Below are positions 2,068-33,936 of a stretch of DNA of 36,391 bases, piece by piece. This stretch comes from Clostridia bacterium (GTDB taxonomy: Bacteria; Bacillota; Clostridia; HGM11514), in NCBI GenBank assembly GCA_034117945.1, contig JAXEOR010000005.1:1-36391 (forward strand). The letters run 5' to 3'. The position numbers were made by a program, and so were the translations under genes. Each line of letters begins with the position of its first letter. The stretch's first letter is position 1. The notes beneath the pieces are model-generated. The model did not search any database. It saw only the letters and a program-made list of their open reading frames with translations, and was not told the DNA's origin.

Positions 2068-4158
2068 TTATATTATATGCTCCGTTCTTAAAATCAACTC
2101 TTCCTGCATTTCAGGAGATAACTTTACAAAGTAATCACTGTAACCGCCTATTCTTACAACAAGGTCTTTATATTTCTCTGGATTTATCACTGCCTTTTCC
2201 AGTGTTTCTTTATCAATTACATTGATTTGCATTTCAAATCCGCCTCTTTTGAGATATGTTTTAATCAGGCTTTTCATGGTATCAAGAGAATGCCTGCCCA
2301 GTGACCTCTTTGAAAACTTCATATTTACTGCAATACCGCCGAGGAGTTCATGATGTGCCCATTTTGTAGAAGATAAAATAGAAGCGGTAGGGCCTTTCAT
2401 TTCTCTGCCCTGACACGGACCTGAGCCGTCACCGAGGGGGAAACCGGCTTTTCTGCCGTCAGGAGTTGCTCCTGTTTGTCTTCCGAAACGCTCATGCATA
2501 ACCCAACAAAAAACGCTTGGTATAAGATTTCCGTTTGTATGCATTCCTTTGTATTTCTTACATTCCGATATAATATGTTCCGTTATTTTCCCAAACAAGC
2601 AGTCAACTTCATCAATGTCGTTACCATATTTCGAAATAGAATTTAATAAACGCTGACTGAAAATTTCATTATTCTCAAAGTTACTGTCGAGTATCTTCTT
2701 AAACTCTTTGATGCTGAGTTCTTTCAAGTCAAATACAATTTGCTTTAACGCATACAAAGAATCTACCAAGTTTGCCATTCCTACGAAGCTTGGCATAATC
2801 CAGTTATATCGTGCACCACCCTGTTCAATATCTGTTCCGCGCTCAAGACAATCATCCACAAAACAGGAAAGAAAAGGATTCATTGAGTTTTCACTGCGAT
2901 ATTTTCTGTCTGCATTTTCGTTCTCAAAGTTACTTTTGATTTTAGCATCAAGGTTTGCAAACAAAGTTACTAATAGCTCACCCATGTCAGTGTATTCTCT
3001 GTCAAGAATATCAAGCAGAAGCTGAGGCATATTCGTATACGGACTTGCCACCCAGACATTTGAGGAAGCTACCGGCGTTATCTCCACACAGGTGCTATGA
3101 ATATAGCTGTGAGCTTCTTTTTCGGGTACACCATAGCATTTTAATCCTTTTGTTATAATATCATCGTTAAATATTGCCGGGTGTGAACAACCGTGTGATA
3201 TAATTTCGCAGGCTTTTTCCAGATACATGTCGTCCATCTCCTCAGTATAGCATAGCCCAACGGAGGGATAAACCAGTCTTATGTCGTCTACTACCTGCAT
3301 ACACATATCGGTGAGCTCATTTGCAACAATGTTATTGTTTTCGTCACGGCCTCCGACCATATAACCGCTCGACAAACCGTTCGGCACACGGTTGTTGATT
3401 TGTATTCCAAGGCAATTTAAAAGCAACTGTGCATATTCTTTTGTGATAACACCAGTTCCTATATCTTTAAGATAATATGGCAATAAATACCGGTCCGGAT
3501 GCCCCAACTGAAACTGCTGTGGACAATACCGGAAGGGGTTAAGAGAAAGACAAAAAGTAATAAAATGAACAGATTGTATTGCTTCGTAAAAACTTTCAGC
3601 AGGATTGGCAGGTACTTTTCTGCATATTTCTGATATTAGATTAAGCTCTTTACATCTGTTTGCATCCGTTGAATTTTCTGACAGTCTTGCTGCTTCGTCA
3701 GCGTAACGTTCTGAAAAACTTATAACTGCTTCAAGGCATTTTTTACATGTAAGATAAAATTTCTTTTTGCTATCATCGCAATTTAAGAGATAGATATTGA
3801 TTTTATCAATGATACCATTTAATCCGTAATTTAATATGAGTTCATAATCAACAGCCATATGTGAATCCTGACCGCTTCCTGCTTTTGCAGATTCCGCTTT
3901 TGCTATGTGCAAATACTTATTCAGCCATTCATTTTCTTCCTCATGCGATAGCTTATTATTGCATTTTCCCACGATAAGCTCATCTTCCGATATAGATGGC
4001 GTCAAGTTAGAAAATGCAAAACAAAAGGCTTCTGCATAGCGGTCTTCTTTTGATGTCTTTTGACTGTCACTATAACACTTGAAGAATTTATAAAAAAATT
4101 CATCATAGCAAATTACATTCTCCAAAGCCATCATGCGTAATTTCTTTATTCTTTTCAT
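2068..4158 (-). CDS. Compact glycyl radical enzyme (PFL-like superfamily, eliminase-type Cys-x-Glu loop), about 696 aa
   Basis: C-terminal glycine-radical motif VVRIGGYSDYFVKLSPEMQEELILRT. Thiyl loop is HSTCVEITP and the ATPDGR motif is present. Start taken as ATG 4158 (MKRIKKLR...), preceded by AAAGGA. The ORF-track start at 4230 lacks an RBS. Confidence 0.93.
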   Translation of the reverse strand: MKRIKKLRMMALENVICYDEFFYKFFKCYSDSQKTSKEDRYAEAFCFAFSNLTPSISEDELIVGKCNNKLSHEEENEWLNKYLHIAKAESAKAGSGQDSHMAVDYELILNYGLNGIIDKINIYLLNCDDSKKKFYLTCKKCLEAVISFSERYADEAARLSENSTDANRCKELNLISEICRKVPANPAESFYEAIQSVHFITFCLSLNPFRYCPQQFQLGHPDRYLLPYYLKDIGTGVITKEYAQLLLNCLGIQINNRVPNGLSSGYMVGGRDENNNIVANELTDMCMQVVDDIRLVYPSVGLCYTEEMDDMYLEKACEIISHGCSHPAIFNDDIITKGLKCYGVPEKEAHSYIHSTCVEITPVASSNVWVASPYTNMPQLLLDILDREYTDMGELLVTLFANLDAKIKSNFENENADRKYRSENSMNPFLSCFVDDCLERGTDIEQGGARYNWIMPSFVGMANLVDSLYALKQIVFDLKELSIKEFKKILDSNFENNEIFSQRLLNSISKYGNDIDEVDCLFGKITEHIISECKKYKGMHTNGNLIPSVFCWVMHERFGRQTGATPDGRKAGFPLGDGSGPCQGREMKGPTASILSSTKWAHHELLGGIAVNMKFSKRSLGRHSLDTMKSLIKTYLKRGGFEMQINVIDKETLEKAVINPEKYKDLVVRIGGYSDYFVKLSPEMQEELILRTEHII

Positions 4159-4195: not shown

Positions 4196-4264
4196 TGATT
4201 TATGATACAATAATAGTGAAAAAGATTCAAAATTATGTATTATCGTATCAAACGAGGCGGAGAA

Positions 4265-5119
4265 ATGGATATTAAATTTCATTGTGATTCAAAACAAAAT
4301 TTCAAAAATGAACATCAACAAGTTCGCGCATTTTTATATACTGATTATTCAATTGAACCCCATAATCACGATTTTTATGAGATGAATATTATTATGAAGG
4401 GAAAAGGAACGCATCAAATTGAGAATGCATGCTTCAGCGCGGAAACCGGAGACGTATTTATGATACCTCCAATGAGGATACATTCATATTACGACACCGA
4501 AGATTTAAATGTATATCATATTTTATTGCATAAGGATTTTATCAGCAATAATCAAAAGGAAAACTCAAGTATTCCGGGTTTTGTTCAATTTACTGAGATT
4601 GAACCATTTTTACGTCAGAATTTTTCAAAGAAAATGTTTCTACATCTTTCTCACGGACAAATATTGCAGTTAAAAACCGACTTAGCCTTTATTGAGGACA
4701 ATAGTGTTTATGATACAAAAGAAATGTTGCCTATAAAAAACCATACAACATGGAAAATCTTATATTGGCTTTCTGCCTTGCTTTTTGATCAAATATATGA
4801 TAAAAACAAAAAGACTTTGAATAAACATGATATTGAAATCATCAGAACTCTTGAATATATACATCAAAACTACGATAGTAAAATAACTATTGATTTGTTA
4901 AGTCAAAAATCGTTTCTTTCACGTTCGACATTTCTCCGTCGCTTTCGCGATGTATGTGAATGTACACCAATGGAATATGTAAACAGATACCGCTGTAAAA
5001 AAGCCCTGGAAATGATAGATAACACATGCTTTTCAAAAACAGAAATTGCATATCATTGTGGATTTTACGATTTATCTCATATGGAGCGGACAATGAAGCA
5101 ATTATGTTCATTACTGTAA
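4265..5119 (+). CDS. AraC-family transcriptional regulator (cupin-like N-domain plus C-terminal HTH), divergent from the GRE
   Basis: N-domain HNHDFYEMNIIMKGKGTH...GDVFMIPP. C-terminal AraC HTH is LSRSTFLRRFRDVCECTPMEYVNRYRCKKALEMI...IAYHCGFYDLSHM. Start is ATG 4265 after GAGGCGGAG. Confidence 0.9.
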   Translation: MDIKFHCDSKQNFKNEHQQVRAFLYTDYSIEPHNHDFYEMNIIMKGKGTHQIENACFSAETGDVFMIPPMRIHSYYDTEDLNVYHILLHKDFISNNQKENSSIPGFVQFTEIEPFLRQNFSKKMFLHLSHGQILQLKTDLAFIEDNSVYDTKEMLPIKNHTTWKILYWLSALLFDQIYDKNKKTLNKHDIEIIRTLEYIHQNYDSKITIDLLSQKSFLSRSTFLRRFRDVCECTPMEYVNRYRCKKALEMIDNTCFSKTEIAYHCGFYDLSHMERTMKQLCSLL

Positions 5120-16564: not shown

Positions 16565-19500
16565 TCAATCCCGGTTGATGTTACATTCAATGACGCTTTG
16601 AATCTCTTTTTTGATATTAAACTGATGGGTATCGGATAATTTCTCTGTTTGCGTGCAGAACTGCATTCTTGAAAGCGCAAGTGCGTTTTCCTCCTCCGGG
16701 CAGATGCCAAAAACAAATCTGAAGCTGTGGGGTCTTAATTCATAGCATTCCTCAGGATTGGGGCCGCAGGAATGACTGCCTAGTCCGCGCATTTTGTAAT
16801 CAATATACAGGTATTTGTTTTTGGATTTTTTAAGCTCATTTCTGTGCCTTGCGTTTTCCAGATCCTTTAGCGTAAAATCATGACAGGAAAAGTCAAGCCG
16901 ATCTGCACCGATAATGGAAAAGGATTTGTTTTCGGCAAGGAGTGTTGCAAAAAATGTTTCTGTTCTTGTTCCGCATTCCTGGGGAATATCATACATGAAA
17001 TTCATTTCTGTGATAGGCAGCTCATAAAGTCCGAAATTGCAATGCTCCTTTCTGTCAATATAATTTTCCTCAGGACCTCTTCCGTACCACCGAACAGTGC
17101 TATAATTCTCCGGTATTTCAAAGCATACGCCGATTCTGGGCAACACCTCCGGAAGGGCACCGAAGGGTTCGCCTACATATTCAACAAGAATCAATCCGTC
17201 CTCATAAACCCGGTAAATCAAGCTGATGTTAAATCCGGCAAACCGCGCTTCCGGGAATGCCTTTCCGTTCACTGTAATCTTGATGCAGTCCTCCTCTTCG
17301 TCTGCATTGACCGACTGAGCAAAAAATTTAAAATGTTTGAGAAAAACAGCATCCCATTTATCAATCCATCTCGGCGCAAAGCCGATGATACCGTCGTTAT
17401 CAATAGGCGCACGGTAAAAATTCAGCTTCATGGGAGAGCAAAGCAGAACGCTGCCCTTGTACTCATAATAGGAAATCAGCCCTTTTTGAAAGGATACTTT
17501 AAAATGTTCCCCATCCAAGGTAAGATTTTTTCCTTCCGAGGTGAGCGTTACACATGGTTTTTTGGCGGCATATATGGTTTTTTCATTGCGCCCGAGCGAA
17601 ACCTGCTTATAGGCAATTTCAAATCTGCGGTCGTCATAAAACCGTAGATTAACAAAATAGTTTGCTCCCGGTGTTTTACCGGGAATATCGGTATCAATGG
17701 GAAGCGCCTGCTCTGAATATGGCTTGATTGCAGGCAGCTGCATTTCTCCGCTCTTTAATACTTGAAAATCCTCGCAAATTTCCCATTTCAGAGAAACATA
17801 ATCAAGGGGGCGGAAATTGTTTGTATTCATGATCTTGATTGTATTATTCTCGTAGGTTACATAACATGGAGATAAAACATTTTTACATTCCCTCAACGAG
17901 GGCTTGGGTGTTCCGTCCGAAAGACAATATCCGTCTATGGAGAAATTTGACCAATGATTATAGTCGCCGAAATCACCGCCGTATTTGTAAAATGCATTAC
18001 CGTCAGCATCGCAGCTGTAAAATCCATGGCTTTTATATTCCCAAACATATCCTCCTGTAATATGACGGTTGTGATAAACATAATCCCAGGTATCCTTCAT
18101 CAGCCCGGGACTGTTCCCCATTGCATGACCATACTCTGTCAGAATCACAGGCTTTCCCTGTTCCGGATAACTCAGCAGTGATTCCATTGTAAAATATCCG
18201 TCGGTGCGAAAATCATTCATGATGGGATTTTTGGAATCATCCATTGTGTGAAAAACAGGAACATTCCCCAACCTTCTCTTGATATAACGGATGCATTCAT
18301 CAATATTTTCACCGCAGCCATGCTCGTTTCCGATCGACCAGATGATAACGCAGGTTTCATTTTTGTCTCGTTCTACCATCCTTTCGGTGCGGTTTAAATA
18401 GGCTCCCAGCCATTCCGGCTGTTTGGAAAGGTAGCCCTGATCGCCTGTTGTATTGCATCCGTGGGTTTCAATATCTCCCTCATTCATAACATAAAATCCC
18501 AGCTCGGAAGCAATTTCATAAAATGCCGGATGATTGGGATAATGAGAGCATCTGATGGCATTCATATTGTGATTTTTTAAATTTTTCAACTCATTTTCTA
18601 TGAGTTCAACAGTGATTGCTCTGCCGTTTTTGGGATCATATTCATGACGGCAGACTCCCTTAAGAGTAATGGGTGTGCCGTTTACAAACAGCTTGTTTCC
18701 CTCAATGTGTTTTTCAATCAAGCCGATTTTTTTTGAATGAATTTCTATGGGCACTCCGTTCCTTTCAAGGGTCAGATAGGTGTGATACAAAAAGGGTTCT
18801 TCGGCATTCCATTTGACCGCATGATCCACCTCAAATTCAAAATGCATATTTTTTTCTGCTTGTTTTTCAATGGTTTGCCCGTCCGCCTCTGCTCTTACGA
18901 TGCAATGAGTCATATCTTCACCGCCAAGAACAACCTCCATCAGAATTTTATTTCCCTGCGTGTGAATATGATAATCAAAAATATAATTATCTGAAAGCTG
19001 AAAAATCATAACATCTCTGAAAATGCCGTTTGCAAGAAGCATATCCTGATTTTCAAGATAGGTTGCGTCACTGTAGGTAAACACCTTTACGCACAAAATA
19101 TTCTCTCCGTCCACAGCCATATCCGAAACATCAAATTCTGCCGGAAGTCTGCTGCCCTTTGAAAAGCCGACGTATTTTCCGTTTAGATAAACAAAAAATG
19201 CATTGTCTACTCCCCCGAAATAAAGAATGGTTCTTTCTGTCTTTTGTAAATAAAATTTTTTTCTGTAGTATCCCACAGGGTTATCACAGGCGACAAAGGG
19301 CGGATAAAAGGGAATAGGATAGACTACATTGGGATAAGCAGGCTGAGAATAGCCCCTGTATTGCCACATGGAAGGCACATCTATCACATCCCAATCGCCA
19401 TCGTCTAAATCAGGCAGATAGAAATTTTCTATGCAGTCATCCTCTTTGTACAAAAATTTAAAATCTCCGTTCAGCAGACGGATCAGCTCAGAGTCGGATT

Positions 19501-19618
19501 TATTCCTATAATATACATCCTTATGCAAAGCCGGAACTAAAGAGGCTCTTGGCTTCATGCAGCCCTCCTGTAAATAAGCCGGGCTGTTAATTTTCTCTTG
19601 ATACATTTGTAATTCCAT
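16565..19618 (-). CDS. lacZ: GH2 beta-galactosidase (LacZ type, with C-terminal small-chain domain)
   Basis: Acid/base region WSIGNEHG and nucleophile region ILTEYGHAMGN. The C-terminal domain carries RWYGRGPEENYIDR. About 1017 aa, AT-rich. Confidence 0.95.
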   Translation of the reverse strand: MELQMYQEKINSPAYLQEGCMKPRASLVPALHKDVYYRNKSDSELIRLLNGDFKFLYKEDDCIENFYLPDLDDGDWDVIDVPSMWQYRGYSQPAYPNVVYPIPFYPPFVACDNPVGYYRKKFYLQKTERTILYFGGVDNAFFVYLNGKYVGFSKGSRLPAEFDVSDMAVDGENILCVKVFTYSDATYLENQDMLLANGIFRDVMIFQLSDNYIFDYHIHTQGNKILMEVVLGGEDMTHCIVRAEADGQTIEKQAEKNMHFEFEVDHAVKWNAEEPFLYHTYLTLERNGVPIEIHSKKIGLIEKHIEGNKLFVNGTPITLKGVCRHEYDPKNGRAITVELIENELKNLKNHNMNAIRCSHYPNHPAFYEIASELGFYVMNEGDIETHGCNTTGDQGYLSKQPEWLGAYLNRTERMVERDKNETCVIIWSIGNEHGCGENIDECIRYIKRRLGNVPVFHTMDDSKNPIMNDFRTDGYFTMESLLSYPEQGKPVILTEYGHAMGNSPGLMKDTWDYVYHNRHITGGYVWEYKSHGFYSCDADGNAFYKYGGDFGDYNHWSNFSIDGYCLSDGTPKPSLRECKNVLSPCYVTYENNTIKIMNTNNFRPLDYVSLKWEICEDFQVLKSGEMQLPAIKPYSEQALPIDTDIPGKTPGANYFVNLRFYDDRRFEIAYKQVSLGRNEKTIYAAKKPCVTLTSEGKNLTLDGEHFKVSFQKGLISYYEYKGSVLLCSPMKLNFYRAPIDNDGIIGFAPRWIDKWDAVFLKHFKFFAQSVNADEEEDCIKITVNGKAFPEARFAGFNISLIYRVYEDGLILVEYVGEPFGALPEVLPRIGVCFEIPENYSTVRWYGRGPEENYIDRKEHCNFGLYELPITEMNFMYDIPQECGTRTETFFATLLAENKSFSIIGADRLDFSCHDFTLKDLENARHRNELKKSKNKYLYIDYKMRGLGSHSCGPNPEECYELRPHSFRFVFGICPEEENALALSRMQFCTQTEKLSDTHQFNIKKEIQSVIECNINRD

Positions 19619-19674
19619 AATGTAAAAATCTCCATTCCGCCGCCCTGCGCCGGCATAGGTAATAAAAAAGTTTT

Positions 19675-19705
19675 CTCTTATCCGCAGGGCAAGGAATGAT
19701 AAGAG
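19675..19705 (-). promoter_or_regulatory. Terminator-like hairpin inside the GH2 5' leader
   Basis: CTCTTATC-15 nt-GATAAGAG, followed on the minus strand by AAAACTTTTTTATT and on the plus strand by ATTTTTT. It lies about 60 nt upstream of the lacZ start. Confidence 0.4.
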
Positions 19706-19869
19706 ATTTTTTGCCCAAGTGCGTTTCCGACCAAATGGTCGGAAAAATTCGCACGGGCAGTGAATTCCGCCGGAGTCATGACGTGAGAATCACGGCGACT
19801 TCCATTCTAGCGGAGGAAATAAGAAAAAAACTTTCACGTTACCACCTTCTTTTTTGTGTTGATACCTTG

Positions 19870-19878
19870 ATTGTAGCA
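19870..19878 (-). promoter_or_regulatory. Candidate extended -10 (TGcTACAAT) promoter for lacZ
   Basis: The minus strand reads gTGcTACAAT. This implies a leader of roughly 245 nt. Confidence 0.35.
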
Positions 19879-19898
19879 CAAATAAATGAAAATTAGTA

Positions 19899-19928
19899 TT
19901 GCAAAATGATACTGTTATATGGTAAAAT
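19899..19928 (+). promoter_or_regulatory. Candidate promoter of the AraC gene at 20010
   Basis: TTGCAA, an 18-nt spacer, then TAAAAT. Confidence 0.45.
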
Positions 19929-19934
19929 GATACT
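19903..19934 (+). repeat. Two exact 11-nt direct repeats AAAATGATACT with a 21-nt period
   Basis: Copies at 19903..19913 and 19924..19934, in the lacZ/AraC divergent control region. Confidence 0.6.
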
Positions 19935-20009
19935 ACACTATAGCGTGATGATCCTTTAGGCGTGATTTTATGGTTTTTTATGTGCTTTGTGGGCAGGAGG
20001 TCTTTTGAA

Positions 20010-20783
20010 ATGAATATGAACAATTTATCTGTTATGCGCATTATGCAGGAAAGTTGCAGCAAAAGTAAAGAGAAAACAGATATTATCATGCCCTACACCG
20101 CCCTTCATTACATCCTATCGGGATCCGGCTATTTCAATCGGGTAAAGCTTGGAGCAGGGCAGTTTTTCTGCGCCGTGAAGGATACAAAGGTGTGCTATTT
20201 CCCCTGCTATGAGGAGCCTTGGACCTATATTTATATTGATTTTTATAGCGAAAAAAGTAAAATGGACTCTCCTCTGAAATGGGGACTTGATGTTAACGCC
20301 CCCTACGGACAATTTGATTTTATGGAGGAGCTGAAAAAAATTTATGGCTTCTATGAGGAATATAGTCGGCATTATATATGTAATAATGAATTTATGACAT
20401 CGGTGGCAAGTATGATCCTTTTTCTGCACAAAACCCCGGCACAAAGGGACAGTTCTCTGGCACACAAGCATGTCAATGATATCAAAGAGTATTTAGATTT
20501 TAATTTCTACAAAAAAATCAGGATCGAGGATCTTGCAAAGGAATTCTATCTTTCTCGCCAATATGTACGCAATCTATTTGATCAGTATTTGAACATGTCC
20601 CCAAAGCAATATCTTCAAAAAGTAAGAATGGAGAAGGCCTCTGAATTGCTTTTGAATACGCAATATAGTGTGGCTCTTGTAGCCTATTCGATCGGGTATG
20701 ATGATCAGCTCGCCTTTTCTAAAATGTTTCAATCCTATTATGGATTGTCCCCGACACAGTATCGAAAGGCAAATGCAATATAG
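20010..20783 (+). CDS. AraC-family transcriptional regulator
   Basis: C-terminal HTH LSRQYVRNLFDQYLNMSPKQYLQKVRMEKASELL...VAYSIGYDDQLAFSKMFQSYYGLSPTQYR. Start is ATG 20010 after AGGAGG. Confidence 0.9.
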   Translation: MNMNNLSVMRIMQESCSKSKEKTDIIMPYTALHYILSGSGYFNRVKLGAGQFFCAVKDTKVCYFPCYEEPWTYIYIDFYSEKSKMDSPLKWGLDVNAPYGQFDFMEELKKIYGFYEEYSRHYICNNEFMTSVASMILFLHKTPAQRDSSLAHKHVNDIKEYLDFNFYKKIRIEDLAKEFYLSRQYVRNLFDQYLNMSPKQYLQKVRMEKASELLLNTQYSVALVAYSIGYDDQLAFSKMFQSYYGLSPTQYRKANAI

Positions 20784-20820: not shown

Positions 20821-20862
20821 AAAAAATGACCCCCTCAAATATCAGGTTTTTGAGCGGGTCAT
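20821..20862 (-). terminator. Rho-independent terminator of the second GRE operon
   Basis: ATGACCCCCTCAAA-9 nt-TTTGAGCGGGTCAT pairs at 13 of 14 positions. It is followed on the minus strand by TTTTTTCTG. Confidence 0.7.
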
Positions 20863-20902: not shown

Positions 20903-22894
20903 TTAGACGGTATATTCGGTTCGTGCAATGATGTGATTTTGATATTCAATATCCAGCTCGTTGAAATAACCGCTCCAGCCCCACACCCGAACAATCAGAT
21001 TGGGGTGCTGCTCAGGGTGCTTTTGGGCGTCCAGCAGCTGATCCCGGTTGATGGAGTTGATTTGCAGCTGGTGGCCTCCCAGCAAAATAAATTCTTTGAC
21101 CAGTGCCGCTGTTTTGGTAATGCCGTCTTCTGTGCGGAATACCGTATCGTGCACTTCAATGGTCAAGGGGCCGCCGTTGATAATTTCCGTCAGATCGTAC
21201 TTGGTAAAGGATTGAATCACAGAAAGTAGACCGGCAGTTTTCACATCCAGAGAGGGAGAAAAGCTGGAGGCATAGGGTTCTCCGGCCAGCCGTCCGTCCG
21301 CTGTGGCAGGGCAGGCCTTTCCCTTGGAAATATAGTCCATAGCACTGCCGGTGCCTGCCCGCCAAATGCCCCCTCTGCCGTTGCTTTGGCCATTTAGGTG
21401 ATGAGAAAAGGCCTTCATCAGCTGGCAGGCAATCTGATCCACCTCATCCTCATTGCTGCCCATTTTCGGACAGGAGCGCAGCAAATTGCGCAGGGGGATA
21501 TTTCCTTCAAAATTGTGATCCAGAGCGTCTAAAAGCTCCTCCTTGGAAACTGCTTTATCATCATAAATGACCTGCTTGACGGCTGCCAGCGCATCCGCTC
21601 CGTTAGAGATTCCCGCACCGTGACAGCCAAAGTTTAGATATTTGGTTCCCCCTTGAAACAGACCGGTCAGGTTTTGGATGCAGCCGTCAAAGAAAACGGA
21701 CAGCAGGGGATGGATTCCCCAGCTTGCGCCTTCCGCCCCCTTGATCAGCCGCTGACATTCTGCTCCGATTGCCTTTTGTACCTGCTCCATCAGGTCGGAA
21801 AAGGTGGGGGCGGCCATCAGACAGCGGTGAAGGGTATCGCTGATCACATGGGGGAAATCCATGGTTTTCAGGTTGGGAACATCTGCTCCCAGACCGGGAA
21901 TGATATATTCCCAGCAGGCTGCTACGGTATAATCCAGTGCGTCCTTCTTATCATAGCCCAGCTTGACCAGCCCGGGAACGACCACGTCGTCGTTGCAGTA
22001 TTGGGGAAAGCCCAGCCCTTCCTTGGTAAGCATCGTGGCGGCTTTGAACAGGCTTGGAGGGGTGTTTTTCCCCACCCGCAGGTTGATTTTCGGATCAATG
22101 AGCTTCAGCTCTCGGGAGGCATCCATGCAGAATTGGGACAGTCGGTGATACATGTTGTTTCCCTGCTCGTCAAACCCGCCTAATACCATGCTTTGTCCAT
22201 TATCGCCCTGCTGAATGCCGGTGTAAAGATCAGTGTCAAAATTCAGGGAGATGAAAAATTCCTCCAGCAGCTCAAACAGCTCCTCATCCGGAACGCCCCG
22301 CTTTTGATCCGCCAGAAAAAAGGGCAGCATATATTGATCGAACCTGCCCAGGGTAACGTGGCACACATGGTCGTACCGTAGCAGATAAATGCAAAGCTTG
22401 AGAAAAACGCAGGCCTGATGGAAGGTTTCAGCCCCCCGGCGGGGAACGGTTTCCAGGGCCTTTGCCAATTCTGTATGTCCTTCCTGCAAAGCCTGAACCC
22501 GGTACCGTTCGGCAAAGGCAATCCCCGCTTGCAGGGAGGAAATCATTTCATGGGCAAACTGCCGCTGTTCTTCATTTTGGGGCTGCTGCCTTTTGATTTC
22601 CTCTATGATTTTGTCAAAGCCCTGGGTGATGACCCGGCTGTAATTGGGGGTTACGTTACCTCCCCAGTCCTGGGAGACAAAGCGGATGCTGCGGTGAAAG
22701 CCCAGCCGATCCTGACCGTAAAAAACCGGGCGTTCCTCTGCCAGAACCTTAGAGAGCCACCCGGCTCCGTTTTCCTTGCAGCAGCTTTGCAGCTGTTCCC
22801 ATTCTCGGGGCGCGTCCCGGCGATTGCTCCGGTATTCTCGTTTTCTCAATATTTCCAAAAGCTCCTGTACCCGTTTTGTCATAATGATTTTCAT
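20903..22894 (-). CDS. Compact glycyl radical enzyme, second paralog, about 660 aa
   Basis: C-terminal motif IVRVWGWSGYFNELDIEYQNHIIARTEYTV. Thiyl loop is TVAACWEYIIPG and PATADGR is present. The start is ambiguous (ATG 22894 or 22882; the ORF track uses GTG 22909). Confidence 0.92.
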   Translation of the reverse strand: MKIIMTKRVQELLEILRKREYRSNRRDAPREWEQLQSCCKENGAGWLSKVLAEERPVFYGQDRLGFHRSIRFVSQDWGGNVTPNYSRVITQGFDKIIEEIKRQQPQNEEQRQFAHEMISSLQAGIAFAERYRVQALQEGHTELAKALETVPRRGAETFHQACVFLKLCIYLLRYDHVCHVTLGRFDQYMLPFFLADQKRGVPDEELFELLEEFFISLNFDTDLYTGIQQGDNGQSMVLGGFDEQGNNMYHRLSQFCMDASRELKLIDPKINLRVGKNTPPSLFKAATMLTKEGLGFPQYCNDDVVVPGLVKLGYDKKDALDYTVAACWEYIIPGLGADVPNLKTMDFPHVISDTLHRCLMAAPTFSDLMEQVQKAIGAECQRLIKGAEGASWGIHPLLSVFFDGCIQNLTGLFQGGTKYLNFGCHGAGISNGADALAAVKQVIYDDKAVSKEELLDALDHNFEGNIPLRNLLRSCPKMGSNEDEVDQIACQLMKAFSHHLNGQSNGRGGIWRAGTGSAMDYISKGKACPATADGRLAGEPYASSFSPSLDVKTAGLLSVIQSFTKYDLTEIINGGPLTIEVHDTVFRTEDGITKTAALVKEFILLGGHQLQINSINRDQLLDAQKHPEQHPNLIVRVWGWSGYFNELDIEYQNHIIARTEYTV

Positions 22895-22959
22895 AGCCTT
22901 TCTGCCCACAGAATGAAAAATAGGGCGGACACGCTTGCTCTTACCGTGGGCGGATAAGG
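22895..22959 (-). promoter_or_regulatory. Conserved hairpin element, copy B (between activase and GRE)
   Basis: The minus strand reads CCTTATCCGCCCACGGTAAG-29 nt-TGTGGGCAGAAAGGCT, directly abutting ATG 22894. GCCCAC pairs with GTGGGC. Confidence 0.55.
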
Positions 22960-22983
22960 CGTATCCTTCAAAAGGAAATGGTT

Positions 22984-23832
22984 TTATAGCAGCTTTGTTT
23001 GGATGCCGTGCGCTTCAAAAAGCTCCTGCCGGGGGTTGGGGGACAGGGTGACATCAAAATTCGGCTGATAGCTTCTGCCGGTCATGGCATATTTACTGCC
23101 TGCCATGTTATGGTAGGGCATCAGCTCGGCATAGGCGATGCCCTCTTCTTGCAGCAAAGAGGCGATGGCGGCAATGTTTTGCTGGGTATCCGTCACTCCC
23201 GGAATCAGCGGAACACGGATGCAAAACGGAGTATCGCTCCGGGCAAGCAGATGAAAATGACGAAGAATGCTTTGATTGCTGCACCCGGTATAGGCTTTGT
23301 GCATAGCATCGTCTATGAGTTTTAAATCAAACAGGATATAGTCCGTAGCGGAAAGAACCGCCTCAAACAGGGGATCCTGGCAATAGCCGCAGGTCTGCAC
23401 TGCGGTGTGCAGTCTGCCCTTGAGCAGAGAAAGACATTCCAGCAAAAATTCCCCCTGGAGCAGAGGTTCTCCGCCGGAAAAGGTAACGCCCCCCTCCTGC
23501 TGTAAAATGGCCTGATTTTTGCATAATTTTTTTGTCAGCTCCTGAGCCGAATAGACTTGGCCGCACATACGCAGCAGCCCTCTGGGACAGACGGCAATGC
23601 TTTCCTCGGTCAAAATCACGCCGTCCGGTTGGGCAATGCCCGCCTGAAGGCAGCTTCCGCAATGGAGACAGCCGTTGGGACTTTTCACAATTTCAGGCTT
23701 GCTTTGCTGCCCTTCCGGGCTGTGGCACCAGCTGCACCGCAGAGGGCAGCCCTTGAAAAACACTGTGGTGCGGATCCCCGGTCCGTCGTAGATAGAAAAT
23801 TCCTCAATAGAGAATACAGTTCCCTGTGACAT
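22984..23832 (-). CDS. Glycyl radical enzyme activating enzyme (radical SAM), with a single reduced auxiliary-cluster insert
   Basis: FSIYDGPGIRTTVFFKGCPLRCSWCHSPE. There is one CLHCGSC...CP motif, plus GGVTFSGGEPL. Start is ATG 23832 (MSQGTVF). The ORF-track extension to 23949 covers the leader. Confidence 0.92.
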   Translation of the reverse strand: MSQGTVFSIEEFSIYDGPGIRTTVFFKGCPLRCSWCHSPEGQQSKPEIVKSPNGCLHCGSCLQAGIAQPDGVILTEESIAVCPRGLLRMCGQVYSAQELTKKLCKNQAILQQEGGVTFSGGEPLLQGEFLLECLSLLKGRLHTAVQTCGYCQDPLFEAVLSATDYILFDLKLIDDAMHKAYTGCSNQSILRHFHLLARSDTPFCIRVPLIPGVTDTQQNIAAIASLLQEEGIAYAELMPYHNMAGSKYAMTGRSYQPNFDVTLSPNPRQELFEAHGIQTKLL

Positions 23833-23844
23833 ACTTTGTTTCAC

Positions 23845-23897
23845 AGCCTTTCTGCCCACAAAAATAAAGAAATCATAAGCCCTTTTTGCCGTGGGCT
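23845..23897 (-). promoter_or_regulatory. Conserved hairpin element, copy A (upstream of the activase)
   Basis: The minus strand reads CAGCCCACGGCAAAAAGGGCTTATGATTTCTTTATTTTTGTGGGCAGAAAGGCT, ending 12 nt before ATG 23832. Confidence 0.5.
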
Positions 23898-23982
23898 GAC
23901 TTTGCTTTTCCGGGGGAGAGCACGGCGGTACAGAAAAAATCCGCCGCACCCCGATTTTGCAGAAATATGTCCCCCTATGGTT

Positions 23983-24012
23983 ACTATATCATTTTGCCTC
24001 TTGACAAAGCAA
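23983..24012 (-). promoter_or_regulatory. Candidate promoter of the activase-GRE operon
   Basis: The minus strand reads TTGCTT, an 18-nt spacer, then TATAGT with an upstream TG. Its -35 box is adjacent to the -35 box of the divergent AraC promoter. Confidence 0.4.
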
Positions 24013-24029
24013 GAAACTTTTTATACAAT
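24001..24029 (+). promoter_or_regulatory. Promoter of the AraC gene at 24070
   Basis: TTGACA (24001..24006), a 17-nt spacer, then TACAAT (24024..24029). Confidence 0.65.
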
Positions 24030-24069
24030 AATAGTCAAAAGTTATCTTTTTCAAAAGAAGGTGAGCAGA

Positions 24070-24831
24070 ATGTTTCATCAGCCCCACAACTCTATGGGGA
24101 ATTATCATTATAACGGGATTGTGTATCAGGCATACCGCTGGGCCTCTCATTTTCACAGAAGCTATGAGCTGGTGTATGGGATGGCGGGGCAAACAAAAAT
24201 CGGCGCCAACGGCCAGGAGCTTTTGCTGGGAGAGGGAGAATTTTATCTGATTTTTCCCAATACGGTTCACAGCCTGGAGTCTGTGGATGATTCCCGGTTT
24301 TGGGTAGGGGTGTTTTCGGGGGATTTTATCGGACGGTTTGCAAAGGCGGAGGAAGGGCAGTGCTATTCTCCCTTTCGGTGCGAGCCGGAGGTGGAGCGGT
24401 TTTTGAAGGGGTATTTGCTGTTTGACGGAACGCCTTCTTTGGACATGAGGATTGCCTGTCTGAATCTGGTTTGCGATCAGTGCTTAAAATATGGGGAAAA
24501 GCAGGAGATTTGCTATAATCCGGATTTGAAAAACAAGCTGCTTTTGTATTTTGCAGATCATTTCAAAGAAAATGTGACTCTTTCGGAGATTGCCGGGGAG
24601 CTGGGCTATGAATATCATTACTTATCCCGGGAATTTCACCGATGTTTTCAAATGAATTTTAAGACCTTTTTAAATTTATACCGCTTTGAAGCGGCCTGTG
24701 AGCTGCTGTCCGAAACGGAAAAGAGCTTAACGGAGATTGCCATGGAAAGCGGGTTTCAAAGTTTGCGCAGCTTTAACCGCCTGTTTAAGGATTTCAGCGG
24801 CATGGCGCCGCACCAATATCGAAGGAAATAG
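24070..24831 (+). CDS. AraC-family transcriptional regulator, divergent from the activase-GRE operon
   Basis: Cupin-like N-domain (HFHRSYELVYGMAG...FYLIFPNTVHS). C-terminal HTH is LSREFHRCFQMNFKTFLNLYRFEAACELL...IAMESGFQSLRSFNRLFKDFSGMAPHQYR. Start is ATG 24070 after AGAAGGTGAG. Confidence 0.9.
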   Translation: MFHQPHNSMGNYHYNGIVYQAYRWASHFHRSYELVYGMAGQTKIGANGQELLLGEGEFYLIFPNTVHSLESVDDSRFWVGVFSGDFIGRFAKAEEGQCYSPFRCEPEVERFLKGYLLFDGTPSLDMRIACLNLVCDQCLKYGEKQEICYNPDLKNKLLLYFADHFKENVTLSEIAGELGYEYHYLSREFHRCFQMNFKTFLNLYRFEAACELLSETEKSLTEIAMESGFQSLRSFNRLFKDFSGMAPHQYRRK

Positions 24832-24914: not shown

Positions 24915-25649
24915 CTATGCATTTCTGAACCGAGCCAAAAATTCCTTGGTTTCCGGCTGGCTGGGATGCTCAAAAATATCCGTGGGACTGCCTTCCTCGC
25001 AGATGACGCCGTTGTGCATAAACACCACATGGTTAGCCACATCTCTGGCAAAGGCCATTTCATGGGTAACGATCATCATGGTCAGCCCCTCCTGTGCCAG
25101 GGTGCGGATGACATTTAACACCTCTCCCACCATCTGAGGATCCAAAGCGGAGGTAGGCTCGTCAAACAAAATCAGATCCGGCTTCATGGCCAGGGCCCGG
25201 GCAATGGCCACCCGCTGCTTTTGCCCGCCGGAAAGCTGCTTGGGCTTGGCATGGATATAAGGAGCCATTCCCACCTTTTCCAAAAAAGCAATGGCTTCCC
25301 GCTTGGCATCCTCCTTAGGGGTTTTCAGCACCTTTTGCTGGCCGATCATGCAGTTTTTCAGAACGGACATGTTTTCAAACAAATTAAAGCTTTGAAACAC
25401 CATGCCCACCTTGGCCCGGTAGGCAGGAATATTTTTGGTTTCCAGAATGTCCTGTCCTTTATAAATAATCTGCCCTCCTGTGGGAGTTTCCAGCAGATTG
25501 ACGCATCGGAGCAGGGTTGATTTTCCCGAACCGGAGGCGCCGATGATGCAGGTCACATCGCCGGTGTTGACAGAAAAATGAATATCCCGCAGTACCTCGT
25601 TTTCTCCAAACTGCTTTTTTAAGCCTTTGATTTCAATAATTTTACCCAT
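24915..25649 (-). CDS. Polar amino acid ABC transporter ATP-binding protein
   Basis: Walker [10 protein letters not shown], signature [15 protein letters not shown] and Walker [13 protein letters not shown]. Start is ATG 25649 after GGAAGGAGGG. It overlaps the permease stop by 8 nt. Confidence 0.95.
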
Positions 25650-26406
25650 TTTCCATCCCTCCTTCCTCCGCTGCCGACTGGGCGGCGGGCTGCAGCACAT
25701 AAGAAGCGGGGCCGTCGATTTTTTGCTCGATCAGCCGTAGCAGTCTTGTGATGCTGAAGGTAAGGATGAAATAAATCACGCAGGCCACCACATAGGTTTC
25801 AAAAATTGCCCAGGTCATTTTGGATATTTTCGCCGTAAAGAAGTACAGCTCTGTTACGCCGATCACGTTCAGTACAGAGGTGTCCTTAATATTAATGACA
25901 AATTCATTGCTGATGGCGGGCAGAATATTCCGCATGGCCTGAGGAATCACAACATGCAGCATGGTCTGCCAGTGGTTCATTCCGATGGAGTAGGCTCCTT
26001 CAAACTGCCCCTTATCAATGGAGATAATTCCCCCTCTGACGATTTCTGCCATATAGGCACCGGTGTTGATGGATACGATAAAGATACCCGCCGGAATCAA
26101 GGGGAGGGTTTTGCCGTTGTTCATAAAGGCATAGCCCCAAAAGATAACCATGGACTGCACCATCATAGGTGTTCCCCGGAAGATTTCCACATAAATGCTG
26201 ATCAATCCGTTAATAATTTTCAAAATTACCCTGACAACGGCTTTCTTTGATTTTGGGATGGTTCTGATCACCCCGGTAATCAGCCCGATGATCAGGCCGA
26301 TGACGGTACCCGTCAGGGCGATCAGCATGGTATAGCCGATTCCCTGGATAAAATAGCCTCGGTAGGAGACAAAAATTTCCGCAACTTCTTTCAAAAAATG
26401 AATCAT
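25642..26406 (-). CDS. Polar amino acid ABC transporter permease
   Basis: EAA-like loop [32 protein letters not shown]. Multiple TM segments. Confidence 0.92.
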
Positions 26407-26426
26407 AATAGTAACCCTTTTTCAGA

Positions 26427-27269
26427 TTATTCTTCCACCGGTGCAATTTTCACCATTTCAGCCATCAGTTCTTTTTGCGCCGCTTCATCAAAGGTGCTGA
26501 TAAAGCTGTTGATGCCCGCTGTCAGCTCGGAGCCTTTTTTCACACCCACTGCAATGCTGGTGTCTTCCACAGGAACCTGAAAACCGGTTTCATTGTTGAC
26601 CAAAGGAATATAGGTGTATTTTCCGCCTTCGGTGCATACGGCCATAGCGGTAGGCTCCTCTGCGATATACCCTTCGATGGTGCCCGCGTCAAGAGCGATC
26701 AGCATGGTAGAAAAGTCTGCCAGCTCGCTTACCTCAGCCTTGGTCTGGCTGGAAAGTGCGTCCAGATGAGAGGTTCCCGACTGGGCGGCAATTTTTTTAC
26801 CGTCTAAGTCCGCAATGGTTGTCACATCCTCCAGGCTGCCTTTTTTGGTGATCACAACCAGGTTGGATACATAGTAATTATCCGAGAAGTCAATTTTTTC
26901 TTTTCTTTCTTCTGTGGGGCTCATACCGGCGATGATCATATCCAGCTTGCCGGACTGCACGGCGGGAATCAGGCTGTCCCACTCATAGGAATAAATCTCC
27001 AGCTCTTTTCCCATGGACTGTGCAATTTGGATTGCAACCTGAACATCATACCCGTTGGTGAACATATTTGCAACGTTTTTGATGGGAACCGCACCGTTGC
27101 TGTCATCCGGCTGAGACCAGTTATAGGGTGCGTAATTACATTCCATTCCGATCCGGATCACATTGCTTTCTGCCGTTTCTTCCGTGCCGCTTTCCTGGTT
27201 TGATGCGCCGCACGCGCACAGGGCAAACACCATTGTGACTGCCAGCAGCATTGCCAATACTCTTTTCAT
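26427..27269 (-). CDS. Amino acid ABC transporter substrate-binding lipoprotein (family 3)
   Basis: Start is ATG 27269 (MKRVLAMLLAVTMVFALCACGASN, a signal peptide with lipobox-like Cys) after GGAAAAGGTGG. The ORF-track N-extension to 27482 covers the riboswitch. Confidence 0.9.
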   Translation of the reverse strand: MKRVLAMLLAVTMVFALCACGASNQESGTEETAESNVIRIGMECNYAPYNWSQPDDSNGAVPIKNVANMFTNGYDVQVAIQIAQSMGKELEIYSYEWDSLIPAVQSGKLDMIIAGMSPTEERKEKIDFSDNYYVSNLVVITKKGSLEDVTTIADLDGKKIAAQSGTSHLDALSSQTKAEVSELADFSTMLIALDAGTIEGYIAEEPTAMAVCTEGGKYTYIPLVNNETGFQVPVEDTSIAVGVKKGSELTAGINSFISTFDEAAQKELMAEMVKIAPVEE

Positions 27270-27311
27270 TTGATAACCACCTTTTCCTAAAAAATATTTA
27301 TGACCGTGCCC

Positions 27312-27545
27312 TTCAAACAAGAAAAGTCCGTAAACAGAAGCGTTTACGGACAAAATACCTTCCTGTTCAATCCTGATAGCGCTCCACAGATTTGTGACAG
27401 TGTATTGCATTTTCTGCAATACCCCAGCAAAGAAGTCTCCGGCGAAAGCCCCTTTGCTTCGGCGCCCGTTCCTTTCCTCCAAGCCCGGCGGCCGGCCGGT
27501 CAGCGGCCTGGAGTACTGATCCCAAACGCACCTCTACCATTGATC
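27312..27545 (-). promoter_or_regulatory. Lysine riboswitch (L-box) with intrinsic terminator expression platform
   Basis: The minus strand shows the conserved L-box blocks in order: GGTAGAGGTGCG ... ATCAGTA ... GGAGGAAAGG ... GGGCGCCGAAGC ... TTGCTGGGG ... ACTGTCAC ... GGAGCGCTATC. These are followed by GTCCGTAAAC-gcttct-GTTTACGGAC plus TTTTCTTGTTT (27312..27351). Confidence 0.9.
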
Positions 27546-33713: not shown

Positions 33714-33739
33714 AGGCTACATAGCAGACCTGCTGTGTT

Positions 33740-33903
33740 CGTAAAATGCCGGAGTAAAATTTAACCAACACAAACGAATAGGGAATCTTGCTCCGTCTGC
33801 GGCGTAAATGCCCCCCAAATCTGATTTGGCCAGGGGACTTATTATGCAGACGGGAGGATACCCACCTGCGAGAGCAGGTTAAATTTTTCCGGTATATAAA
33901 ACG
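33740..33903 (+). ncRNA. Candidate structured ncRNA, rod-like with a large central bubble (6S-like); strand uncertain
   Basis: The closing stem pairs CCGGAGTAAAATTTAACC (33749..33766) with GGTTAAATTTTTCCGG (33877..33892). The inner stem pairs CTCCGTCTGC (33791..33800) with GCAGACGGGAG (33846..33856). The apical hairpin is CCCCCCAAA-tctga-TTTGG..GGGG. The bubble has about 24 nt on the 5' side and 19 nt on the 3' side. Confidence 0.3.
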
Positions 33904-33936
33904 GCACGGCGGGTTTTTATCATTTTATTACATTTT

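Follow-up and report, generated by a model that had tools for sequence, protein, structure and literature searches.

A compact glycyl radical enzyme encoded with an activase and an AraC-type regulator in gut Clostridia appears to represent an uncharacterized clade with asparagine at the general-acid position

The window analyzed here spans the whole 36,391-bp contig (JAXEOR010000005.1, NCBI) of a metagenome-assembled genome (MAG) of a Clostridia bacterium. Between positions 20903 and 24831 it carries an intact three-gene unit, cassette 2, which encodes a glycyl radical enzyme (GRE), designated GRE2, its radical S-adenosylmethionine (SAM) activase, AE2, and a regulator of the AraC family, AraC2. 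As judged from its sequence, GRE2 belongs to a large, deep, mechanistically distinct and uncharacterized clade of compact GREs, in which asparagine occupies the position of the histidine that acts as general acid in glycerol dehydratase. The mechanically derived open reading frames (ORFs) of the unit were 20903-22909 (minus strand; PFL-like and Gly_radical domains) for GRE2, 22984-23949 (minus strand; radical-SAM GRE activase, TIGR02494) for AE2, and 23836-24831 (plus strand; AraC with cupin and helix-turn-helix, HTH) for AraC2. Comparison with family alignments and with the called protein revealed that all three are too long at the 5′ end. Homologues of GRE2 begin with MT(K/E)R, and because the Met-Thr N terminus is invariant in the family alignments, the start of GRE2 was placed at 22882 (20903-22882, minus strand), resulting in a protein of 659 aa numbered from MTKRV; an alternative ATG at 22894 would yield 663 aa. 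AE2 is encoded on the minus strand either by 22984-23832 (ATG, 282 aa) or by 22984-23844 (GTG, 286 aa), and AraC2 (253 aa) by 24070-24831 on the plus strand, which exactly matches the called protein. On the minus strand, AE2 is followed by GRE2, and AraC2 is divergent from this operon. The GC content of cassette 2 (0.47-0.53) and that of its third codon positions (GC3; 0.56-0.61) resemble those of the host, for which GC3 is 0.61-0.62 in metK, ligA, and tkt. An earlier note on this DNA, made from the letters alone, had described the cassette as a three-part unit of GRE, activase, and AraC at host GC; these data support it as genuine, intact, and of native composition.

GRE2 matched the Pfam domains PFL-like (PF02901; 279 bits, E 1e-82) and Gly_radical (PF01228; 68.7 bits, E 7.5e-19), both above cut-off. 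Its AlphaFold2 model was of high confidence (predicted local distance difference test, pLDDT, 91.4; predicted template modeling score, pTM, 0.92), and Foldseek related it to many GRE structures with a probability of 1.00. Top structural matches were glycerol dehydratase (GD; 1r8w) and the propanediol dehydratases (PDs) 9rcp and 5i2g; template modeling (TM) scores to GD, PD, PflD, CutC, and HypD all lay between 0.81 and 0.83, at 22-29% sequence identity, so that none of them was preferred. On the sequence level, the top matches among solved structures were PflD from Escherichia coli (E 1.5e-76) and GD from Clostridium butyricum, both ∼28-29% identical, and no solved or named GRE was more than 29-31% identical. 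According to the predicted model, GRE2 has the GRE barrel fold and is nearest to the 1,2-eliminases and isomerases. It is considerably smaller than GD, with 77 residues before the first conserved block versus 161 (∼84 fewer) and internal deletions of ∼40 residues, which makes it ∼125 residues shorter overall. Against the NCBIfam model TIGR01774 (PFL2/glycerol dehydratase subfamily), GRE2 scored 316.7 bits (cut-off 678.2); against those for HypD, CutC, HpsG/HpfG, PflD-type PRK09983, indoleacetate decarboxylase, and 4-hydroxyphenylacetate decarboxylase, it scored between 144 and 287 bits (cut-offs 1000-1150), and against the PflD model NF007437 287 bits (cut-off 1109). With every NCBIfam functional cut-off missed, GRE2 would lie outside all named GRE functions, those on glycerol, propanediol, hydroxyproline, choline, and sulfonates included.

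Two motifs characterize the active site of GRE2, the thiyl loop AACWEY at residues 321-326 and the glycine motif RVWGWSGYF at residues 632-640. The published GRE fingerprint around the radical glycine is RVXG[FWY] (PMC11528403), and R632-V-W-G635-W636 of GRE2 fits it; compared with characterized enzymes, only the tryptophan at X is unusual. Residues of GD were mapped onto GRE2 by two pairwise HMMER and two MAFFT alignments, all of which were concordant. Cys433-Val434-Glu435 of GD correspond to Cys323 (codon 21914-21916; all codons on the minus strand), Trp324 (21911-21913), and Glu325 (21908-21910) of GRE2; Cys323 also aligns with Cys419 of PflD. His164 of GD corresponds to Asn76 (22655-22657), the Ser282/His281 region to His175 (22358-22360), Tyr339 to Gly229, His446-Asp447 to Pro336-Asn337 (Asn337 at 21872-21874), Leu639-Tyr640-Pro641 to Thr511-Gly512-Ser513 (21344-21352), and Ala762-Gly763-Tyr764 to Trp634-Gly635-Trp636 (20975-20983). 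Cys, Glu, and Gly, i.e., the radical relay and the ends of the C-X-E motif, were invariant across the GRE2 family. The same applied to nearly all mapped residues among 17 aligned family members (down to 47% identity), the only variable position being that of Ser513 (Ser in 15, Thr in 2).

The proton donor is where GRE2 departs from its relatives. In GD, Glu435 deprotonates the C1 hydroxyl and His164 protonates the leaving hydroxyl, and all GRE eliminases and isomerases retain the C-X-E motif, with its Glu hydrogen-bonded to the substrate (PMC13450708, a review from 2026). GRE2 possesses this motif (C323-W324-E325). At the position of the general-acid histidine, however, it carries asparagine instead, as do all of the 17 aligned members and 46 representatives of the clade described below. 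The corresponding histidines of PD and HypD are His166 and His160, respectively; PflD also retains this residue in the alignment. Since the C-X-E motif and the glycine are retained and His164 is replaced, GRE2 would keep the radical relay and the base and be devoid of the canonical acid. Because two bulky tyrosines of the GD pocket (Tyr339 and Tyr640) are exchanged for glycines, the pocket is probably larger; taken together, the substitutions imply an enlarged cavity lined with amide and Trp side chains, as is typical of sugar sites. The asparagines at the positions of the general-acid histidine and of GD Asp447 were not part of the earlier note and are the most informative feature beyond it.

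To place GRE2 among its relatives, sequence databases were searched at several levels. The 120 closest database clusters comprise proteins of 634-694 aa that are 56-61% identical to GRE2, except for one 99% match; RVWGWSGYF was present in 119 of them and AACWE[FYHV] in nearly all. A scan with one genome per species detected a relative in at least 589 species-level genomes. The 80 loci that were kept all derive from uncultured Bacillota in gut samples (human, goat, sheep, deer, and chicken), nearly all of them Clostridia (Oscillospiraceae, Acutalibacteraceae, and Lachnospiraceae) with a few MAGs labeled Bacilli. A HMMER search of 1.84 billion representatives at 50% identity gave 5984 matches, and the 113 full-length proteins among the top 150 were scored for clade membership. 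In 46 of the 113 (median length 688 aa), a triad was complete, with Asn replacing the general-acid His, C-W-E in the Cys loop, and Trp preceding the radical Gly; nearly all displayed triad members also contained Gly at the position of GD Tyr339 and Asn at that of Asp447. About 25 of the 46 are of the GRE2 type (RVWGW, AACWEF), and 19 form a sister subclade (RVWGFSAYF, S/A-A-C-W-E-P) sharing 30-36% identity with GRE2. The triad proteins bear no functional name, being labeled hypothetical protein or formate C-acetyltransferase. In the alignment, five representatives near the clade (P0346, P0365, P0366, P0369, and P0380) are without the catalytic Cys, the radical Gly, or both, which may reflect degeneration, fragmentation, or misalignment. 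Literature searches with the RVWGWSGYF motif and with GRE in combination with AraC, Oscillospiraceae, GH127, galactofuranose, capsule, or O-antigen yielded no paper on the GRE2 family, and the 2026 review (PMC13450708) does not describe an enzyme of this type.

The breadth of the family also puts the observations of the earlier note into perspective. The length of ∼660 aa stated there agrees with the 659-663 aa obtained from the corrected starts and, given relatives of 634-694 aa with an invariant MT start, does not stem from a misplaced start codon or an assembly artefact. All the motifs it listed (AACWEY and RVWGWSGYF in GRE2, CLHCGSC...CP in AE2, and two auxiliary motifs in the activase of the other cassette on this contig, AE1) are present, and its proposal that GRE2 falls outside known functional clusters is borne out by the NCBIfam equivalog scores and by the identity of at most 29% to solved GREs. 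The glycine motif, considered atypical, is so only with respect to the Trp preceding the radical Gly and otherwise conforms to the fingerprint. The gene order, considered inverted, does have the activase before GRE2 and is no local peculiarity: when all ORFs of 83 family loci were called and clustered, the layout AraC(−) AE(+) GRE(+), as in the window, was the dominant one (∼51 of 83), and the activase-first order is thus the family norm. Likewise, what had been taken for local oddities are a signature of the family (the reduced activase) and of the clade (the GRE motifs).

The cognate activase adjoins GRE2 directly upstream, as in the GRE superfamily. AE2 scored 249.7 bits against TIGR02494 (cut-off 174.35) and contains CPLRCSWC, i.e., the CX3CX2C motif of the SAM cluster, followed by a single auxiliary motif, CLHCGSC...CP (CX2CX2C...CP). 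Most GRE activases carry eight additional cysteines and up to two auxiliary [4Fe-4S] clusters (PMC13450708). AE2 has fewer than these eight; its insert comprises ∼80 aa versus 95 aa in AE1, which has two ferredoxin-type motifs. One auxiliary motif within a shortened insert is typical of GRE2-family activases. In one family locus (L018), the activase, encoded 5′ of the GRE gene, has lost the auxiliary motif altogether and contains an insert of ∼35 aa without cysteine, so that the family may be able to do without this cluster.

AraC2 has the architecture of AraC/XylS regulators, with a C-terminal double HTH (HTH_18, 78.5 bits; HTH_AraC, 55.2 bits) and an N-terminal cupin ligand-binding domain (AraC_binding, 34.8 bits). 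Between araC2 and AE2, a divergent promoter/operator block of ∼70 nt (23971-24044; nhmmer profile, E 5e-13 for the window) is located, which is shared by 40 of the 53 intergenic regions between AraC and activase genes, that of the window included. Within it, the promoter of araC2 is close to consensus (plus strand; TTGACA at 24001-24006, 17-nt spacer, TACAAT at 24024-24029; 11/12 in the promoter scan). That of AE2-GRE2 (minus strand) combines a weak and variable −35 element (TTGCTT, 24012-24007) with a −10 element (TATAGT, 23988-23983) at a distance of 18 nt. A weak −35 and a good −10 element are the pattern expected for an activator-dependent promoter, and direct repeats of TTGTC(T/A)A are candidate AraC half-sites. 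Downstream of GRE2, an intrinsic terminator of the operon (20821-20862, minus strand) was predicted as a GC-rich hairpin followed by U6 (−22.8 kcal/mol; z = −5.2), and none of 200 shuffled sequences was as stable. A further feature is a 42-nt direct repeat (minus strand; 79% identity between the copies), one copy of which covers the region of the ribosome-binding site (RBS) and start of AE2 (23827-23868), and the other that of GRE2 (22877-22918). The repeats are the core of a duplicated leader of ∼70 nt (23827-23905 for AE2, 22877-22950 for GRE2), which, besides the RBS, includes the initial codons and potentially a GCCCACGG/CTGTGGGC hairpin. As a consequence of this duplication, the AE2-GRE2 spacer is ∼100 nt long versus 10-30 nt in other loci; none of the other family loci has the leader repeat, which is unique to the lineage of the window. 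A structured RNA in the leaders was considered and rejected, as the fold z-scores were −0.4, +0.8, and −1.5 and there was no match in Rfam.

Across the 83 loci, only three genes were conserved together, those for the GRE (82 loci), the activase (73), and AraC (65), the latter usually divergent from and adjoining the activase; no pathway partner beyond them was conserved, the next cluster being glycoside hydrolase (GH) family GH127 with seven loci. Co-oriented neighbors within 150 nt amounted to 46 genes in 27 loci. Recurrent among them were GH127 (four times), GH43, GH2, and xylose-isomerase-like TIM barrels (three times each), and GH20 and components of sugar ATP-binding cassette (ABC) transporters also occurred. 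In six lineages, GH127 lay immediately beside the cassette or apparently within its operon. The nearest solved match of the GH127 neighbor was the β-L-arabinofuranosidase 4qjy (E 2e-144); that of the short GH2 neighbor was named β-glucuronidase, with β-D-galactofuranosidase 9j6n (E 3e-78) coming second; the GH43 neighbor resembles arabinofuranosidases and xylosidases. Oxidoreductases of the GFO/IDH/MocA family, too, recurred near the cassette, as did the TIM barrels. Farther out in the clade, a member 44% identical to GRE2 is encoded in an operon of the order GH36-like/major facilitator superfamily (MFS) sugar transporter/GRE/activase, and one 36% identical lies between GH4 and SIS-PfkB-GatZ genes. 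The sister subclade was found in a different type of operon: among 80 metagenome loci, a Wzx-type flippase was encoded at position −1 in 46, the activase at +1 in 64, UDP-galactopyranose mutase (GLF) at +2 in 22, a family 2 glycosyltransferase (GT2), usually at +3, in 20, and DUF4422 in 9. In loci L093-L172 (e.g., L093, 6618-13092), the genes for the flippase, the GRE, the activase, UDP-galactopyranose mutase, and GT2 follow one another in this sequence. The common thread of these neighborhoods is carbohydrate, specifically enzymes making or releasing furanoses. No coupling of GREs with galactofuranose, capsule, or O-antigen synthesis emerged from the literature searched.

The interpretation we favor, with moderate confidence, is that GRE2 catalyzes an AraC-induced radical C-O cleavage, either an elimination or an isomerization, on a sugar derived from glycans. 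AraC2 would be made from its near-consensus promoter, sense a small glycan-derived molecule, and activate the AE2-GRE2 promoter with its weak −35 element. AE2, with its one auxiliary Fe-S cluster, would then abstract a hydrogen atom from Gly635 of GRE2, as expected from its family membership. The glycyl radical would generate a thiyl radical at Cys323, which would in turn abstract hydrogen from a hydroxyl-bearing carbon of the substrate. Glu325 of the C-W-E loop could deprotonate the hydroxyl, and the resulting ketyl radical could expel the oxygen substituent of the neighboring carbon, the proton being provided by His175 or by the substrate itself. C-O cleavage would amount to a net dehydration or a ring-opening isomerization, and the product radical would regain hydrogen from Cys323. 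What the data show directly is the parts, their conservation, the fold, the residue exchanges, and the gene neighborhoods; we infer radical formation, reaction type, and substrate. Among candidate substrates, a neutral carbohydrate set free from plant or microbial glycans is the most likely, and it may be L-arabinofuranose, galactofuranose, or another furanose, or a derivative of such a sugar.

Several observations weigh against a glycan-derived sugar as the substrate, or against the proposed chemistry. The flanks of GRE2-type cassettes consist mostly of unrelated housekeeping genes, GH127 or GH2 occurring in only a minority (∼12 of the 83 loci), and no transporter or downstream enzyme was conserved beside the cassette in these loci. 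The own neighbors of GRE2 in the window are a LacZ-type GH2 and a GH38 enzyme rather than furanosidases. The context of the sister subclade was deduced from relatives only 30-36% identical to GRE2, which possibly have another function. Which residues line the pocket was derived from alignment to GD and PflD, and the clade members are known from their sequences, GRE2 in addition from a predicted model. Moreover, as the general-acid histidine of GD, PD, and HypD is missing, dehydration would need another proton donor, for which His175 is a candidate, or the chemistry would be a different one.

A more far-reaching version of the sugar hypothesis is that the clade defined by Asn, C-W-E, Asn, and RVWG constitutes a new functional class of GREs acting on furanoses (galactofuranose, L-arabinofuranose, or activated forms of them), with catabolic as well as biosynthetic roles. 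In gut Clostridia, the bacterium of the window included, the enzyme would follow furanosidases in catabolism and be induced via AraC; its counterpart in the sister subclade would modify the nucleotide sugar made by UDP-galactopyranose mutase during the biosynthesis of surface polysaccharides. We put this forward tentatively, as a possibility that has the odds against it.

The loss of the general-acid histidine could also mean that GRE2 acts on a hydroxylated substrate other than a carbohydrate, with a leaving group that does not have to be protonated (amine, sulfonate, or phosphonate). C-S lyases possess an amide residue (Gln) near the position of this histidine, and Asn in GRE2 would parallel them, or CutC, which has Asp there. 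Consistent with this notion, the flanking genes of most loci carry no carbohydrate signal. Yet GRE2 scored far below the CutC, HpsG/HpfG, and HypD models; no genes for sulfite reductase, amine handling, or microcompartments are found nearby; and the only recurrent neighbors encode glycoside hydrolases and sugar enzymes. IslA, IseG, and HpsG hold the sulfonate by an Arg-x3-Gln clamp (PMC13450708). This clamp has no counterpart in GRE2, where an Asp stands four residues ahead of Asn76, and a sulfonate lyase was therefore rejected. A non-carbohydrate substrate in general is considered unlikely.

If the substrate is a sugar, GRE2 might be a compact version of the PflD/YbiW-type isomerases, opening an anhydro-sugar phosphate at its ring ether and yielding a deoxy-ketose phosphate. 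That PflD was the top sequence match among solved structures, that the GRE2 model superimposes on it with TM 0.82-0.83, and that C-X-E is retained would all be in accordance with such a function, as would the recurrence of GFO/IDH/MocA and xylose-isomerase-like proteins, which are typical of keto- and anhydro-sugar pathways. However, identity is only 29% and the NF007437 score about a quarter of the cut-off, the positions of Asn76 and Asn337 of GRE2 are taken by His and Asp in PflD, and genes for a phosphotransferase system (PTS), a kinase, or an aldolase are not among the conserved neighbors of the cassette, in contrast to the PflD locus used for comparison, which encodes PTS components. This assignment is thus decidedly unlikely.

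It is more improbable still that GRE2 is a dehydratase for small diols (glycerol or 1,2-propanediol) on a shortened scaffold, although 1r8w, 9rcp, and 5i2g were its top structural matches and an AraC-family regulator is likewise found upstream of dhaB1-dhaB2-dhaT in C. butyricum. His164, Tyr339, Asp447, and Tyr640 of GD are replaced by Asn, Gly, Asn, and Gly, respectively, in 17 of 17 aligned members, because of which the pocket should be larger and without a proton donor. In addition, the cassette lacks conserved neighbors encoding alcohol or aldehyde dehydrogenases or microcompartments, and GRE2 reached less than half of the TIGR01774 cut-off.

A decaying or non-catalytic remnant, as might be suspected from the missing ∼125 residues, the non-canonical residues, and the few representatives near the clade that lack Cys or Gly, is very hard to reconcile with length and motifs kept across at least 589 species, invariant Cys, Glu, and Gly, co-conserved activase and regulator, a confident structure model, native codon composition, and intact promoter and terminator. 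Least credible of all is that GRE2 is a pyruvate formate-lyase (PFL), as which its relatives are annotated in public databases and whose Pfam domain it matches: PFL contains an adjacent cysteine pair (C418/C419; PMC12338860), and this naming is untenable because the loop of GRE2 (A-A-C-W-E) contains only one Cys and the protein scored 73 bits against TIGR01255 (cut-off 994), PFL structures being among its weakest matches (E 1.6e-17).

GREs drive consequential reactions in the anaerobic gut, which involve trimethylamine, p-cresol, skatole, precursors of H2S, and the use of hydroxyproline; whole clades of them are still unassigned (PMC13450708). Cassette 2 is a minimal entry into such a clade, with three genes, its own sensor, and a distribution over hundreds of uncultured species of gut Clostridia in humans and herbivores, and the active site of GRE2 differs from that of all characterized eliminases at the position of the proton donor. 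If the link to sugars or furanoses is true, a radical route would be added to the breakdown of dietary and microbial glycans, and, via the sister subclade, the first GRE-dependent step in polysaccharide biosynthesis would be at hand; a role of GREs in building glycans is not described in the 2026 review (PMC13450708) or in the literature retrieved by full-text searches. The AraC2 sensor offers a direct handle on the inducer and, hence, on the substrate.

Other features of the contig concern the surroundings of cassette 2. A LacZ-type GH2 β-galactosidase (16565-19618, minus strand) and its own AraC regulator (∼20007-20783, plus strand) are flanked by a ClpP-like gene on one side and by the terminator of GRE2 on the other; their GC3 of 0.43-0.44 is intermediate, and the block (16565-20783) may be a third acquired one. 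On the other side, cassette 2 adjoins an amino-acid ABC transporter operon (24915-27272; binding protein, permease, and ATPase), 5′ of which lies a lysine riboswitch (27369-27544, minus strand; Rfam RF00168, 100 bits), suggesting that a lysine-regulated uptake system is located directly beside the cassette. A 6S RNA gene was detected at 33724-33919 (plus strand; Rfam RF00013, 94.9 bits). No record in PLSDB was more than 33% identical, i.e., there was no sign of plasmid carriage.

A further system for comparison is cassette 1 on the same contig, which consists of an activase (1168-2067), GRE1 (2068-4158; 696 aa as called publicly), and an AraC regulator (4235-5119). Like GRE2, GRE1 is compact, uncharacterized, and adjacent to an activase and AraC in gut Clostridia MAGs. 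It differs in retaining His100 and C-V-E and in having R-I-G-G-Y, and cassette 1 differs in its GRE-first order, its two-cluster activase, and its foreign composition (GC3 0.28-0.35 versus ∼0.6 for the remaining contig). The contrast between one GRE of foreign and one of native composition, as well as the strong divergence of the two, was correctly recognized in the earlier note. Their identity is 24-27%, which is lower than what either shares with full-length GD or PflD, and in a neighbor-joining tree, GD and PflD cluster with the GRE1 family, apart from the GRE2 family. A common short-GRE clade was rejected on these grounds, and with it the idea of an expanding family of local paralogues. 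The GRE1 family forms a large set of its own, consisting of 696-aa proteins annotated as hypothetical, and copies of cassette 1 that are at least 90% identical exist in other Clostridia MAGs, a finding suggestive of a recent horizontal transfer, although the MAG contig might also be chimeric. By sequence, GRE1 and GRE2 represent two unrelated families of compact GREs, encoded 17 kb from each other and the former probably acquired by horizontal transfer, rather than expanding paralogues. That they use distinct substrates, as had also been proposed, is plausible, as the two differ in their pocket residues and each belongs to a large family of its own.

Among the characterized systems, GD (DhaB1 of C. 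butyricum, 1r8w) and the PDs (5i2a, 9rco) share with GRE2 the barrel fold (TM 0.82-0.83), the C-x-E loop, the RFDQY motif, the C-terminal glycyl radical domain, and an adjacent radical-SAM activase, and the dhaB1-dhaB2-dhaT locus also the upstream AraC-family regulator. At 27-29% identity, they differ by the exchanges His164 to Asn76, Tyr339 to Gly229, Val434 to Trp324, Asp447 to Asn337, Tyr640 to Gly512, and Ala762 to Trp634; cassette 2, furthermore, has the activase first, one auxiliary motif instead of two, and no dhaT or aldehyde-handling partner. PflD/YbiW (8yjo, 8id0, 8id7), isomerases acting on 1,5-anhydro-hexitol 6-phosphates, have the C-X-E motif and a Gly corresponding to Gly229 in common with GRE2, and their substrates are carbohydrates, as is proposed for GRE2. 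Apart from the low identity and the retained His and Asp of PflD, the two are distinguished by their genetic linkage, which is to PTS genes in the case of PflD and solely to AraC and the activase in the case of GRE2. The active-site signature is shared by the sister subclade (e.g., P0348 from a Planctomycetes MAG), whose members are 660-740 aa long, have an adjacent activase, and contain Asn at the His position, C-W-E, Trp before the radical Gly, and, in most of those displayed, Asn at the position of GD Asp447. In contrast to cassette 2, they are encoded GRE-first and without AraC, in operons for polysaccharide biosynthesis comprising Wzx flippase, UDP-galactopyranose mutase, and glycosyltransferases.

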